DNA from: Amoebidium appalachense
Lineage: Eukaryota > Protista > Ichthyosporea
Direction of reading: 5' to 3'
NCBI GenBank assembly: GCA_963693365.1
Contig: CAVNZM010000008.1
Coordinates: 9,732,293 to 9,796,292 of the forward strand
DNA: 64,000 bases
The notes beneath the pieces are model-generated. The model was not told the DNA's origin and did no database searches. It worked only from the letters and a program-made list of their open reading frames with translations. Both the position numbers and the translations under genes were made by a program. Each line of letters begins with the position of its first letter. The first letter of the stretch is position 1. Positions 1-34,568 of the stretch are shown one piece after another.

Positions 1-401
1 AGCTGTGTGGTCACCTTGGAATCGGGTTCGGCCATCGAATTGCTCAGGAGCACATATTCATCCTCCACTCTACCGCCCGCATCTCGGCTGTATCCACCCA
101 TCCCCGCCTGCACGTTACCCCCGTCTGCCCCCATGCTCACGGCTGCCCGACGTGGAACCCTCCCTCACGGTAGTGGCCGCGTCTGCGCCTGCCGAACTGC
201 ACCCCCCACGCCCTGCTTGTTCTGCTGTCTCTGCGCATTTGCCTGCTCTCCCCCTTCCACAAAGGCCTTCATCTCGGCGTAGATCTTGGCCCGGGACCCG
301 GAGTACGGGGGCATGCGGGCGTGCCGGGCGTGCGCGACGCACGCCGCCCGTCGCTGTCTGAACCCCGCGTGGCCATTAGTGAGTCCCACCATTTTATTGG
401 A

Positions 402-1845
402 TCAACCAGCTCCCAGCAGCAGCAGCACGAGCGCCACCGCGATCACCAGGCCCCAGTACGCCGCGGCGTTCGCGTGCGCCCAGGCGCTTGCCGACCCCAG
501 TGGTGTTGGGGCAGGCTGTGTCGGCACAGGCGGCGCAGGCGGGTTCTGCGAGTCCTTTCCAGCCTCCCCAGGCACACCGGGTACGGCCGGAGCCCCGGGC
601 TCTGAGGGCTTGTTGTCGGGGTTGGTGTTGGTGGTGGTGGCACCCGACTCCTCCTTGCCGATCTGCATGAGGCACTGCTGTACCTGCGTGGCCTGGATCT
701 TGGCGTCAGTGTTCTCCGTGACCTCCATGGCCTGGTTGCAGATCTGCACGTTGAGCGCCGTGCACTCCTCGTTCTCCATGTCGCGCGTCTTGTAGCCCTG
801 CACCTTGCACACGGCGTGGTGGCACTGCACGCTCCAGCCGAACTTCTTCTTGAGTGTGGCGTGGTCCATTCCCGCCGGCAGCGGCGCAAAGCACCCGCAC
901 GTGGGATCATTGACCCCGGCCTCGGTCTTGCAAAAGAACTCGGCATATGCATTCACAGCGCTGTCCTGTGTTGCCGGGAAAAGGTAGTTCTTGTCCATGC
1001 GAGCCTGGTCGTGCAGCGGAACCACCGAATCGTCCCGCCCGCGCGAAAACTCGAGGAGGTCGCGCAGCCGCAGCGGCCTAGCGGTGTCCCAGTTCTGCTC
1101 TCGCTTGTAGTCAAACTTGTACAGCAGGTAGCGGTCGTGCATGCGCAGGAGGCTCACGGGCCGCATGGTGTGGTCGTTTCCCTTGGCCAGCTCGCCGCGG
1201 TACTGGACTCGCAGCTTGGACTGCTGCAGGGACACAAGGTGGCGGTGCGGGGCGCGCAGCCAGTAGTCCGGGTTCCAGTACTTCTGGTAGTCGTCCCACT
1301 TCCAGTCCTGGTTCTTCCTGGAGGCCGAAGGGGCGCACATCTTGTCGCCGGGGTTGTACGTGGGGAAGGCCGGTTGGTCGCTGAGCGCCACGTAGTCGGC
1401 CGGGCACGTGAGCACCTTGAGCCGGGTGGCGTTCTGGCGGGTGCTGGCCGGGCACCCAACGGCCTGTGCGTCCTCCTGGATGTCTGCCAGGCTGGGGGTG
1501 TAGCAGAATCGCGGGTCGTCGTAGATCAGACACACCAGGTCCGAGTCGACGGGGTTGTACTCGGGGTCGCCGTGGTTTCGCCTGCAGCCGGCGGGGTCCT
1601 CTGCGGTCGCACACGAGGCCCACGACACAAAAGAGACGGCCTTGTATTTCGGGAACGCAGGGTGTGGCAGGGGGGAACTGGAGCTTGAGCGAGGGCATGC
1701 GCCCACCGTGGTGCGCCCACTCGTTGCCGAACTGCCAGTCCCACAGTTGCTTTCGGTACTCGTCCCAGCGCACGAACTTCCACGGGTAGTCCGGGTTCTC
1801 CTTGAGACGCTCGATGTCGTCCTTTCCCCAGGTGATGTTGGCCAT
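402..1845 (-). CDS. Cys-rich membrane protein of the poxvirus G9/A16 entry-fusion family; one +1 frameshift in a homopolymer at ~1650-1655
   Basis: C-terminal motif FC..DPTCGC...CHHAVC..GYK......C......CNQ, then a Pro-rich linker and a terminal TM helix. ORF 1111..1845 (MANITWG...QFP) joins ORF 402..1706 (LPHPAFPKYK) on removing one C. Confidence 0.75.
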
Positions 1846-2599
1846 CAGTTACCATCCTCCCCATTAATTTGTGCACGCCGGGCCTGCAGCCAAAGCAGCG
1901 CGCGGGCGGCCAGGGCACCAGCCACGCCGCCCAGCAGGGGGCCCCAGGAAGAAGATCCACAGGTGCTTGAGGTCGTGGCTGTCGCCAAACGTGGCCGCCG
2001 CAAGGCTGCGTGCGGGGTTGATGGAGCAGCCGGTGACAGTGACCAACAGCATGTGCATGAGAAACACCACAGACCCGATGGCGAGAGGGGGAAATGACGG
2101 GCGCGACGTCCTCAAGCTTGGGATGCTTGCATGCCAGCGACACCGTAAACACCAAGAACGCCGTGGCGAGCAACTCCATGGCCAGGGCCTCGGCCTGGGT
2201 GGTCCCGCCGACAAGCCCGTTTGTTCCGAACGAGCCGTGGAGGGCGGGAGGCATGCCGGCCCGCAGCAACGCCGTGCCCACGATACCTCCGGTAAACTGG
2301 GCGGTGAAGTAGAGCGGGAGAAGCACGGGGTCCAGCCAACCGGCGGCAACCATGCCCAGAGTCACCGCCGGGTTGACGTGGGCACCCGACACGGGGCCCA
2401 GCACGGCCACCAGCCCCCCAACAACACCCCCGAACCCGGCGGCCACAGCAAGGACGTCAGCGGCCGATGATGCACCGTGTGAGGTTTCACCCGTGGCCAT
2501 GGCGATGCCGATGGCGGTGAAGGTGAGCAGGGCGGTGCCGCAGAACTCGGCGATGAAGGTGGGTGCGTTGTGCAGGAGGAAGGACTTCACGCTCTGCAT
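1845..2599 (-). CDS. Aquaporin (MIP family), two homopolymer frameshifts (~2090, ~1938)
   Basis: AEFCGTALL, SGAHVNPAVTLG, YFTAQFTGG and TGCSINPARSLA: both NPA motifs present across ORFs 1526..2614 and 1864..2349. Corrected C-terminus LGPLLGGVAGALA...EDGN*, with TGA overlapping the next ATG. Confidence 0.9.
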
Positions 2600-2634
2600 G
2601 GTTGAGTGTGGCACACATTTTGTGGGGTGGTGGT

Positions 2635-3465
2635 TTATTTGGACTTTTTGAGGATCTCGCGGGGGCGCTCTACCAGCATGCCAAGGGAAGTGTGTGGGGG
2701 GACCAGGTGGATGATCTCGGTGGCGCTCTCCGTGGTGTTGTACGGCTCGCTTAGGAGCACCACGGAGTCGTACCCACGGGCCCGGGCCTCATTGATGAGG
2801 TCGAAGTCGTAGAAGTCAAAGTAGCCCGTTCCAACAATGGAGCTGTAGTGCGCGCCGCTGCGCATGAGCTCGACGAGTCTGTCCACCTCGGCCACGTAGT
2901 GCTTCTTGTTCTGCGTTTTGGAGAGCACCTGAGACACGAAGTACTGGTCGCCCGGATGGAAGGACTCTTTGGTCAGTCGGTTGTGGAAGTTCCAGTTTAG
3001 CTGCACCAGCGCGTCCAGCTTGGTTTTGGCCACCAGGGGGTTGGCCAGGTTCAGGTACAGGGCGGTGGTGTCTGGGGCGGCATAGTAAAAGGTATAGGTG
3101 GGGCCATTTGGTGCCTTGCGTACGTCACTGGCCCGTCCGAACCGCATGACCTCCACGTACCCCCTGCTAAACGACTCCAGTTTGGGAAACGGCCGCGTGG
3201 TGCACGTCGTCGAGGGCTCACGGTACAGCTTGTCCCGCCTACAGAATTTTGGCGGGTTTTTAAGAAGGAAGTAAGCGTTGCGCCTGCGCAGGTCGAATGG
3301 GCAGCTGTCGGTCTTGTGCACGGCCTTCATGTAGTGTGGGTTGCAGCGGCTGGCCTTGAGCTTGTCGTAGCTGAAGACGCGCTTGCGGGCGCTGCTGTTG
3401 AACAGGTGCTTGTACTCGGTGATGGGCCGTAGCGGCCTGCGCTCACGCGTGCTGGGTGCGTCCAT
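2635..3465 (-). CDS. Hypothetical viral protein
   Basis: Long ORF from ATG at 3465 with GC3-rich codons; stop codon sits within AATAAA. Confidence 0.65.
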   Translation of the reverse strand: MDAPSTRERRPLRPITEYKHLFNSSARKRVFSYDKLKASRCNPHYMKAVHKTDSCPFDLRRRNAYFLLKNPPKFCRRDKLYREPSTTCTTRPFPKLESFSRGYVEVMRFGRASDVRKAPNGPTYTFYYAAPDTTALYLNLANPLVAKTKLDALVQLNWNFHNRLTKESFHPGDQYFVSQVLSKTQNKKHYVAEVDRLVELMRSGAHYSSIVGTGYFDFYDFDLINEARARGYDSVVLLSEPYNTTESATEIIHLVPPHTSLGMLVERPREILKKSK

Positions 3466-3472
3466 CGTGTTG

Positions 3473-33580: not shown

Positions 33581-33673
33581 CCCCCCCCCCCCCCCCCCCC
33601 CCCCCAAAAAAAAAACCCTCCTCCCATCTACCCGCACAACCCCAACCCCACATTATATCGTGCACCGGGTAAC

Positions 33674-34066
33674 ATGGACGCTGGCGCACCCCTTCCCCCA
33701 CCCAGCCCATTCGCACCCCCTCCCCCGATCCGCACAAGCCCGCGCAGCACCCCCGGGCCCTCCCCCATCCTACTGGCCATCCTGGCCGGCCTGATCCTCT
33801 ACGTGCTCTGGGACACGTTCAGCCCACGTGTGCGGCGGCGCCTGGCGGTGCTCAAGTGCCAGCGCGCGTGCCCAATGTGTGCCAGCTGCGGCAGCTGCGT
33901 TCCCCGCTGCAAGTGTGCGCACTGCCCCCGCTGCCACGTGTGCGGTGCCAGCCCCGCCCGGTGCGCACAGTGCCCCGCATGCACGCGCTGCCCGCCCGAG
34001 CAGAAGTGCCCGGCGTGCCCCACGTGTGCGCATGCGCCTGCGGTGGTGATCAAGGAGCGCACTTGA
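33674..34066 (+). CDS. TM protein with CxxC-repeat (metal-binding-like) tail
   Basis: ILLAILAGLILYVLW followed by multiple CPxC/CxxC motifs. Confidence 0.7.
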   Translation: MDAGAPLPPPSPFAPPPPIRTSPRSTPGPSPILLAILAGLILYVLWDTFSPRVRRRLAVLKCQRACPMCASCGSCVPRCKCAHCPRCHVCGASPARCAQCPACTRCPPEQKCPACPTCAHAPAVVIKERT

Positions 34067-34102
34067 AGGGTTGGGTGAGCAGAGATTTTTGTGGCATAGA
34101 GT

Positions 34103-34363
34103 ATGGCGTACCGATGGGAGTACAAGCTGAAGGAGGAGCCCGGCAAGGCACCCGTGGTGCAGGCAACTATTGTGCCGACCGAGGCCACCACCCGGCGGAC
34201 GCAGATGGAGCAACGAGTATATGCACAAGAGCTTGCGGAAAAGGGCTATATAGATCTGCCCGATGAGTTGGCGGAGAAGTGTGGATTCAAGAAGTGGGTG
34301 CCCAAGAATCAACGACAGACAGCAATTGTACTGCAGAAGATGATGGAGCCTGAGGATGCATAG
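34103..34363 (+). CDS. Small hypothetical protein
   Basis: 86-aa ATG ORF with viral-type codon usage. Confidence 0.55.
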   Translation: MAYRWEYKLKEEPGKAPVVQATIVPTEATTRRTQMEQRVYAQELAEKGYIDLPDELAEKCGFKKWVPKNQRQTAIVLQKMMEPEDA

Positions 34364-34568
34364 AGACCTACACAAGCCAAAGGATGAATGGACTCACACC
34401 ACAAACATGGAAAATGTAAATGACGAGAGAATCTCCACAAACATGGAAAATGTAAATGACGAGAGAATCTGTTGGGATGTTTAATTTTGATGAGCTGGAG
34501 TCTATCTCCCCCCCCCCCTCCCCCTCCCCTACACCGTTCAATGAAAACTTGGTAGCATGTGTATCATT

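Follow-up and report, generated by a model that had tools for sequence, protein, structure and literature searches.

Integrated giant viruses of the kind treated here have already been published from the ichthyosporean Amoebidium. The main text of Sarre et al. 2024 (PMC11244446) counts 132 giant-virus insertions, classed as pandoravirales related to Mamonoviridae, and describes them as gene dense, intron poor and enriched in MIP genes, some with secondary transposable element (TE) insertions. According to that text, the core gene set is incomplete in every insertion, and neither particles nor capsid transcripts were seen once methylation had been removed. Medusavirus is reported to have no RNA polymerase (RNAP) and to use positionally fixed promoter motifs of another sequence than those described below (PMC8557863), and Punuivirus is a latent integrated giant virus of Chlamydomonas (10.64898/2026.10.09.758095). 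Here we describe a 64,000-nucleotide stretch of Amoebidium appalachense (contig CAVNZM010000008.1, positions 9,732,293 to 9,796,292; the window), the left part of which is a compact virus-like core. We concluded, with a probability of roughly 0.7, that the window holds the right end of a giant virus that integrated recently into the nuclear genome of a protist and that a neighboring JmjC demethylase gene is likely carried as part of it.

We found that the window has three parts: the compact core (1 to 34.4 kb), then the JmjC gene, and then ordinary eukaryotic genes (Table 1). A preliminary description, made from the sequence without database searches, had listed about 35 tightly packed open reading frames (ORFs) in the core; by hand we counted 31 compact genes. 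The tight packing itself was borne out, since this hand-picked set covers 83% of 1 to 24.7 kb and 72% of 1 to 34.4 kb. The leftmost gene region is cut by the window edge. The abundant CpG and near absence of introns in that description also agree with our results: the CpG observed/expected ratio is 0.96 in 1 to 17 kb and 0.85 in 17 to 31.8 kb, compared with 0.61 to 0.71 in four blocks between 34.9 and 64 kb, and every core gene could be read from the sequence without an intron. The GC content is 0.56 to 0.60 up to 31.8 kb. Simple repeats make up 0.1% of 1 to 24.7 kb, 0.7% of 24.7 to 31.8 kb, 23% of 31.8 to 34.4 kb, 20 to 23% across 31.8 to 41.4 kb and 14 to 18% of 49 to 64 kb. The surroundings are microsatellite rich, as had been stated, although a satellite lies inside the core range (31.9 to 33.5 kb). 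A core that is compact, intron poor and compositionally unlike the flanking DNA is a feature of giant-virus endogenous elements.

Four core genes are typical of the phylum Nucleocytoviricota: those for an A16/G9/J5-like entry-fusion protein, a penton-like protein, an A22-like resolvase and a D5-like helicase. Three of them were recognized below curated thresholds or through a relative. For the entry-fusion-like protein, we found seven relatives among 1.84 billion representatives, and the family alignment has eight invariant cysteines. The Pox_G9-A16 cut-off was passed by P0038 (25.2 versus 24 bits), one of the eight relatives scanned, and both pieces of the frame-broken gene match another relative, P0043. 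A profile search of the PDB gave poxvirus OPG104, which we take to be J5, at an E value of 1.9 with matching cysteines. An L1R/F9-like assignment was dropped in favor of A16/G9/J5 after the cysteine alignment and the Pox_G9-A16 and PDB profile results; Atlas scores for this protein reached only 0.82 or less. The A16/G9/J5 family is reported to be widespread across Nucleocytoviricota, with four copies in medusavirus (PMC10100723). The penton-like protein matched Atlas viral clusters at 0.94 to 0.97, including penton and Sputnik minor capsid clusters, and has one full-length relative (P0034, 44%) that spans both of its pieces. The resolvase gave weak profile matches to Ydc2 (E of 1.3e-4) and Pox_A22 (E of 0.051) and has what we take to be RuvC-type acidic motifs. 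When its low-confidence predicted model (predicted local distance difference test [pLDDT] of 41) was used in a fold search, the top BFVD row was a pithovirus resolvase (E of 0.065).

The helicase has 30 homologs, of which 4 are close (42 to 58%). The best of them, P0001 (KAI9549581.1, 58%), lies on a 183,011-nt contig filed under Daphnia sinensis. We found that this contig also carries P0040 and P0042 (KAI9549601.1 and KAI9549602.1), relatives of the entry-fusion-like protein, and KAI9549601.1 sits 20 locus numbers from the helicase relative; for both core genes, these are the nearest relatives that have a name. The contig may be the genome of an unrecognized giant virus, or it may come from an insertion carried by an attached protist. 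Amoebidium lives on the cuticle of freshwater arthropods (PMC11244446), which, by our own inference, would account for a relative in a Daphnia assembly. A literature search joining Daphnia sinensis with giant viruses found no paper. An alignment search with the helicase turned up distant loci, 2 in viral and 9 in metagenome contigs, at 21 to 29% (one 32-amino-acid segment at 47%), and no other convincing gene at these loci was shared with the window.

We scanned the ORFs of the window with Pfam (50 plus 26 ORFs), PHROGs (30 ORFs) and NCBIfam (26 ORFs). No major capsid protein (MCP), polB, RNAP, A32 or VLTF3 gene was found among them; the preliminary description had reported the first three as missing. 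Since the window holds no core marker, no tree for the virus lineage could be built. The lineage, which that description had left open, is less so now, as the gene content, read from sequence, fits the pandoravirales-related Amoebidium elements (PMC11244446). The description had also named several hallmark families and called about half of the ORFs unrecognizable. The nucleocytoplasmic large DNA virus (NCLDV)-type content stands, and about half of the core genes still have no family assignment after the library scans. What did not hold is profile strength: in the 50-ORF Pfam scan, nine ORFs had a match at an E value of 0.01 or less and three exceeded the curated cut-off (MIP, DUF5906 and JmjC), the JmjC match falling outside the 1- to 34.4-kb range first described. 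Marginal and coiled-coil matches in the three scans, such as FliS, GAS, Gam and VirB9, were judged to be chance. An Rfam scan of the window gave no match, and no host marker gene was found within it. An exact-sequence lookup of 16 window proteins in a protein collection found no match, and no relative came up when IMG/VR was scanned with the membrane protein, the helicase, P0001, P0034 and P0043.

Several of these results weigh against a giant-virus origin. None of the core markers lies within the window, and each NCLDV-type assignment is below its curated threshold or indirect. The entry-fusion-like query itself has no Pox_G9-A16 match in Pfam, only one of its eight relatives reaches that cut-off, and its PDB match is only at an E value of 1.9. 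In the Atlas, the penton-like protein has a recognition score of 1720, under the tool's mark of 2300, and its PDB profile search gave no match. For the resolvase, none of 231 candidates from a sequence search was a homolog, and a search of the PDB gave none either. The other 26 of the 30 helicase matches are 25 to 38% identical, the distant ones being phage or bacterial and the named ones bacterial. Among the close relatives, only one has a name, and it is filed under an animal. Polinton-like viruses, too, have penton-like proteins.

This last point bears on an alternative to a giant virus, namely that the core is a Polinton-like virus, an adintovirus or a giant repeat of the Plavaka type. D5-like helicases are likewise shared with Polinton-like viruses, Atlas rows 3 and 29 are Preplasmiviricota clusters, and 44 adintoviruses as well as Plavaka repeats are reported from Amoebidium (PMC11244446). 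Over a length of more than 34 kb, however, we found none of the features of adintoviruses and Polinton-like viruses (protein-primed polB, integrase, terminal repeats, a length of about 30 kb or less), and the Pfam, PHROGs and NCBIfam scans gave no integrase, transposase or tyrosine recombinase. Among the ORFs scanned with Pfam, there was likewise no family of the Plavaka type (Plavaka transposase, tyrosine recombinase clusters). The entry-fusion-like, resolvase-like and aquaporin genes, together with relatives on contigs of 183 and 335.6 kb, also speak against such an origin, which we regard as highly improbable. The best matches are not cellular or Polinton-like throughout, the outcome that the preliminary description had named as fatal to its giant-virus reading. 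An endogenous element of giant-virus (Nucleocytoviricota) origin is very probable.

Evidence for residence in the host chromosome came from a 98-bp long terminal repeat (LTR)-like fragment inside the resolvase gene. This insert occurs once in the window. Its empty site is present in five contigs of run X3 and two of run X4, and part of it is joined to other DNA in all four runs compared (X3, X4, X13 and X20). Hence a fragment of a repeat with further sites in the genome was inserted into this particular copy, and this argues for its residence in a host chromosome. The insert interrupts the resolvase of the window copy; in other copies it does not. We compared contigs of the runs over 1 to 20 kb, divided into 30 bins, and found 4168 contigs in X3 (30 bins covered), 2782 in X4 (30 bins), 114 in X13 (29 bins) and 640 in X20 (27 bins). 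By identity, 2681 of the X3 contigs were at least 99% alike, 1171 were 95 to 99% alike and 316 were 90 to 95% alike. Listed per-contig depth was 175 to 8887 in X3 and 10 to 427 in X13, figures that are uncalibrated on a single-copy gene and give no copy number. As judged from sequence, this indicates many similar copies of the core. The region from 26 to 34.4 kb is partly present in 20 of the 24 runs listed and present by half or more in 8, from 4 studies; the run that contains most of it may be the one from which the window derives. No RNA run was among those listed as containing it, which carries no information on expression. Run X20 (1858 million letters of DNA) has a different organism label; its 99%-alike pieces have a depth of 2 to 4, a sign in the sequence that the element or its host is present at a low level in another kind of sample.

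The copies differ in ways that suggest the beginning of decay. We examined 40 of 329 differences and found 24 transitions, 14 of them at CpG compared with 8.1 expected (P of 0.011), which is a slight indication of methylation. Single-base breaks of the reading frame at 1670, 1937, 2087, 13773 and 17379, the first four in G runs, differ from well-supported contigs and represent either long-read error or damage private to the window copy. Taken together, the NCLDV-type genes, the copy-specific LTR-like insertion, the near-identical variants and the little CpG loss support the recent endogenization proposed in the preliminary description; the right boundary that it set at 34.4 kb is doubtful, as the next gene is a JmjC gene of the published cargo type.

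The same data bear on whether a misassembly at a repeat linked a host contig to the genome of a free virus that had been sequenced alongside. Core and eukaryotic flank are contiguous in the assembly, the linkage across 34 to 35 kb and 48 to 50 kb comes from the assembly alone, and long simple repeats stand at the transition (31.9 to 33.5 kb and 34.6 to 34.9 kb); the high contig depth would also fit. Against this, the LTR-like insertion is copy specific and its sequence is found in other contexts too, the differences among copies are CpG biased, and each run holds many sequence variants. We consider a misassembly very unlikely.

Could the family still be active? The window would then show a damaged copy of a giant virus that is latent in the nucleus and has an intact master copy or an episome. 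Most contigs are at least 99% alike, with all 30 bins covered in X3 and X4; the depth in X3 is high; the five frame breaks are absent from well-supported contigs; and the promoter motifs described below are sharply preserved. In contrast, depth in X13 varies by segment, as for partial copies, the uncalibrated depths yield no copy number, and neither a full-core insertion nor particles or capsid transcripts after demethylation are described in PMC11244446. Ongoing activity is thus unlikely. Most likely, the window copy is one of tens of partial, silent copies rather than an active virus, and it may be one of the 132 insertions counted in that paper.

We next consider the right boundary. The JmjC gene has seven exons and GT-AG introns of 41 to 1992 nt, and Pfam JmjC matches fall on two of its exons (2e-12 and 1e-3). 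For the better exon, 58 of 59 PDB matches are KDM4/KDM5/JARID-type proteins; the score for KDM5A is higher than that for KDM4D (51.4 versus 47.6 bits), and the KDM4 match is longer (residues 5 to 73 versus 5 to 61). The HTED motif presumably resembles that of KDM4. No PHD or Tudor domain was found on the four exons scanned, and 105 nt of the gene follow the last JmjC exon, so there is no room for these domains. The exon chain is out of frame between exons 1 and 2, between exons 2 and 3 and inside exon 5, through either error, decay or a wrong gene model. According to PMC11244446, 39% of the Amoebidium insertions (52) hold multi-exon, JmjC-only, KDM4-like genes, which its authors did not find in public giant-virus genomes. 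In a literature search for KDM4 or JmjC in endogenous giant viruses, judged by titles and the starts of abstracts, it was the only one on such elements among the papers listed. Because the gene next to the core matches this published intron-bearing cargo, a boundary at 34.4 kb is doubtful. The element likely ends further right, at 41 to 49 kb, and we somewhat favor placing the JmjC gene inside it.

If the element instead ended near 34.4 kb, the JmjC gene would be a host gene beside the insertion site. The gene does look host-like, with a CpG observed/expected ratio of 0.64 to 0.66, 20% simple repeats and microsatellite-filled introns, and its best PDB score is to KDM5 rather than KDM4. Amoebidium preferentially methylates CGC/GCG (PMC11244446). 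With a context-matched control, the ratio of CG in this context is 0.77 in 56.5 to 64 kb (P of 0.002) and 0.74 in the JmjC gene (P of 0.02), compared with 0.98 in the core and 1.02 in 49 to 56.5 kb. The deficit in 56.5 to 64 kb and its absence from the core are as such methylation would predict, weak support for Amoebidium as the host, and the deficit in the JmjC gene points to a host-like history of that gene; under this control the deficit became smaller, and it was gone in 49 to 56.5 kb. An abrupt change is marked by a 312-bp TG tract (34568 to 34879), neither core promoter class was seen at the JmjC start, and a couple of KDM4-like genes lie outside insertions (PMC11244446). Nevertheless, JmjC genes in 52 insertions are far above chance adjacency, poly-C/CA arrays of host type already stand inside the core at 31.9 to 33.5 kb with compact genes after them, and we recognized no insertion scar at 34.4 kb. 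A host gene beside the insertion is therefore doubtful, if less so than the other alternatives, and we keep to an element that carries the JmjC gene. A palindrome resembling a miniature inverted-repeat TE (MITE) is the approximate outer limit of its right edge and stands just upstream of the first clear host-type gene.

Compared with the published Amoebidium elements (PMC11244446), this locus is alike in being a gene-dense, intron-poor block in an intron-rich genome, in its aquaporin, D5-like primase-helicase and secondary TE insertion, in the adjacent multi-exon JmjC-only gene and in the incomplete core set in view. It differs in that the markers used there (MCP, VLTF3 and A32) lie outside the window and in that the paper stresses divergence among insertions, whereas the family seen here has many variants at least 99% alike. 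Like Punuivirus, as described in its report, it has a bipartite layout, with intron-bearing host-like genes beside compact genes that have an AT-rich viral promoter, and a virus-borne eraser of chromatin marks (TET in Punuivirus, JmjC here). Punuivirus is a precedent for intron-rich host-like genes as true parts of a latent giant virus (10.64898/2026.10.09.758095). In contrast to the window copy, it is intact, makes virions and has its own RNAP, and its introns average 176 bp; ours has introns of up to 2 kb and a broken resolvase and is known from sequence alone.

We also found two promoter classes in the core. The motif TATAAAAG has seven matches in the window, all inside 1 to 34.4 kb, where 0.51 are expected and none of 100 shuffles reaches seven. 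In four of the seven it stands 42 to 52 nt before a gene start, and a variant stands 42 nt before a fifth start, so that this TATA class (TATA at -42 to -52) accounts for 5 of 30 gene starts, which were picked by eye (those at 5684, 16245, 22804 and 33674 are not the first ATG of their frame). A run of five A/T at -24 to -13, a position selected after inspection of the data, precedes 20 of the 30 starts and 7.7% of 1079 control ATGs; none of 1000 shuffles reaches 20, even with the position of the run left free. The two classes do not overlap at any of the 30 starts, and 5 starts have neither. TATA-class genes are all three Bro/KilA-like proteins and two small ORFs. The AT-run class includes the penton-like and entry-fusion-like proteins, small membrane proteins and also the helicase. 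Medusavirus is described as having an immediate-early motif that is a palindrome at -40 to -70, where the window has a plain TATA box, and a poly-A motif at 0 to -40 (PMC8557863, PMC10100723). A further difference from medusavirus is that we saw no histones in the window; the absence of RNAP applies to the window only.

By analogy with medusavirus, these classes suggest how the virus may have worked. It would have replicated in the nucleus, where host RNA polymerase II would read the TATA-class genes early, and the AT-run genes would be late viral genes. As PMC11244446 proposes, the JmjC enzyme would strip viral chromatin of repressive histone H3 lysine methylation. Once integrated, the copy would have been CpG methylated and silenced, and it has begun to decay, with a broken resolvase and CpG-biased substitutions. 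A bolder picture, which we consider improbable, is that the window holds a damaged copy of a still-mobile, latent, nucleus-replicating ichthyosporean giant virus, with polymerase II TATA early genes, a viral AT-run promoter for virion genes and, at the genome end, a spliced, microsatellite-laden KDM4-like gene that would keep integrated copies free of repressive histone marks. The tens of near-identical copies would then reflect ongoing reintegration, and the 183-kb Daphnia contig would be an unrecognized relative of the free virus.

Other core genes include several paralogs. The Bro/KilA label, for the three TATA-class proteins (the N terminus in the case of 23081 to 24691), is one that we assume. 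The protein at 9195 to 10127 is 55% identical to that at 23081 to 24691 over 130 amino acids and 38% identical to a gene on the 335.6-kb viral contig (L012), where 13 ORFs around the match gave SET, ankyrin and transposase domains and no marker. A TATAAAAG also occurs at 24283 to 24290, inside ORF 23081 to 24691, which may be two fused Bro/KilA-like genes. The inverted paralogs at 12513 and 20759 are 43% identical over 422 amino acids and have conserved motifs containing H, N and C; no library scanned gave a family for them. The model of the latter had low confidence (pLDDT of 37), its fold searches were uninformative, and a reading of the pair as cysteine proteases found no support in them. 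The small nuclease-like protein, which we take to be of the PD-(D/E)xK type, shares 71% DNA identity over 198 nt with its decayed inverted copy.

The core also contains repeats. An 80-bp intergenic element, possibly an origin- or enhancer-like repeat, occurs at 8341 to 8420 and at 31786 to 31862 (83% alike) and precedes both tandem arrays of the core, a 43-bp array at 8566 to 8767 and the satellite. Contigs from three runs skip 8265 to 8832. The inverted copy in the satellite lies 87 nt away, with arms at 33179 to 33315 and 33403 to 33539 that are 89% alike; the satellite may have remained from a terminal repeat or a concatemer junction, or it may be a plain host-type satellite. To the right of the JmjC gene, sub-terminal inverted repeats (55 bp, 85%, against a 41-bp tandem array) flank an ORF with a 39-bp repeat, and the region from 43055 to 46967 resembles a non-autonomous DNA transposon or a further cargo gene. 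The PLD-family gene beyond has very large microsatellite introns, and from 58879 to 59556 and on to 64000 there are exon-like pieces of a further minus-strand host gene that had no Pfam match.

Table 1. Positions of the core, its genes and the features to its right, numbered from the first nucleotide of the window
Feature	Position	Strand	Remarks
Compact virus-like core	1..34363		Runs off the left edge of the window
A16/G9/J5-like entry-fusion membrane protein	402..1845	-	Cys-rich; C-terminal hydrophobic segment; single-base frame break near 1670
Aquaporin (MIP)	1849..2599	-	PF00230, E 2e-26; TIGR00861; single-base frame breaks near 2087 and 1937
MSV199-like fragment	4749..5447	+	Starts inside the domain; PF10553, E 5e-4, below cut-off
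NUDIX-like protein	7545..8219	-	PF00293, E 0.02, below cut-off
Bro/KilA-like putative DNA-binding protein	9195..10127	-	TATA class; paralog of 23081..24691
Protein without a recognized family	12513..14022	+	Paralog of 20759..22270; frame break near 13773
Penton/minor-capsid-like protein	16245..17602	+	Frame break near 17379
A22/RuvC-like Holliday junction resolvase	17790..18465	+	Broken by the 98-bp insert
98-bp LTR-like fragment	17808..17905		Inside the resolvase; TG...CA inverted ends; 5-bp target-site duplication
Distant Bro/KilA-like protein	18847..20403	-	TATA class; same family as 9195..10127 (E 4e-4)
Protein without a recognized family	20759..22270	-	Paralog of 12513..14022, inverted relative to it
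Bro/KilA-like N terminus with T5orf172-like C terminus	23081..24691	-	TATA class; PF10544, E 0.0014
DUF5906 (NrS-1/D5-like) superfamily 3 primase-helicase	28757..30760	-	PF19263, E 2e-19; PHROGs primases
Small nuclease-like protein	31416..31772	+	Decayed inverted copy at 27822..28019
Satellite	31871..33559		Units of about 50 bp with poly-C/CA spacers; inverted unit copy at 33397..33559
KDM4/KDM5-family JmjC gene	35298..41415	-	Seven exons; microsatellite-filled GT-AG introns
JmjC exons	41415..40283, 38290..37956, 37914..37772, 36815..36700, 36503..36298, 36033..35797, 35402..35298	-	
Intronless repeat/coiled-coil ORF(s)	43514..44864	+	Between inverted sub-terminal repeats 43055..43108 and 46612..46967
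Palindromic MITE-like element	48742..49028		103-nt arms, 100% complementary; approximate outer limit of the element
Multi-exon PLD-family gene	50145..56475	+	First clear host-type gene; signal-peptide-like start; PLDc_2, E 7.6e-6; splice sites

The main text of PMC11244446 does not use the terms TATA, motif, penton, resolvase, entry or RNA polymerase. To what that text reports, this locus adds a promoter code of two classes, genes for entry-fusion-like, penton-like and resolvase-like proteins, a copy-specific insertion that can be dated, and the lead to a related contig of 183 kb. Literature searches, too, gave no earlier mention of the promoter code, the virion-type genes or the 183-kb relative. 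From the promoter classes follows a prediction of which genes would switch on when methylation is lost, and of whether these viruses rely on polymerase II of the host. Were the family still active, a close relative of animals would harbor a giant virus in latent form.

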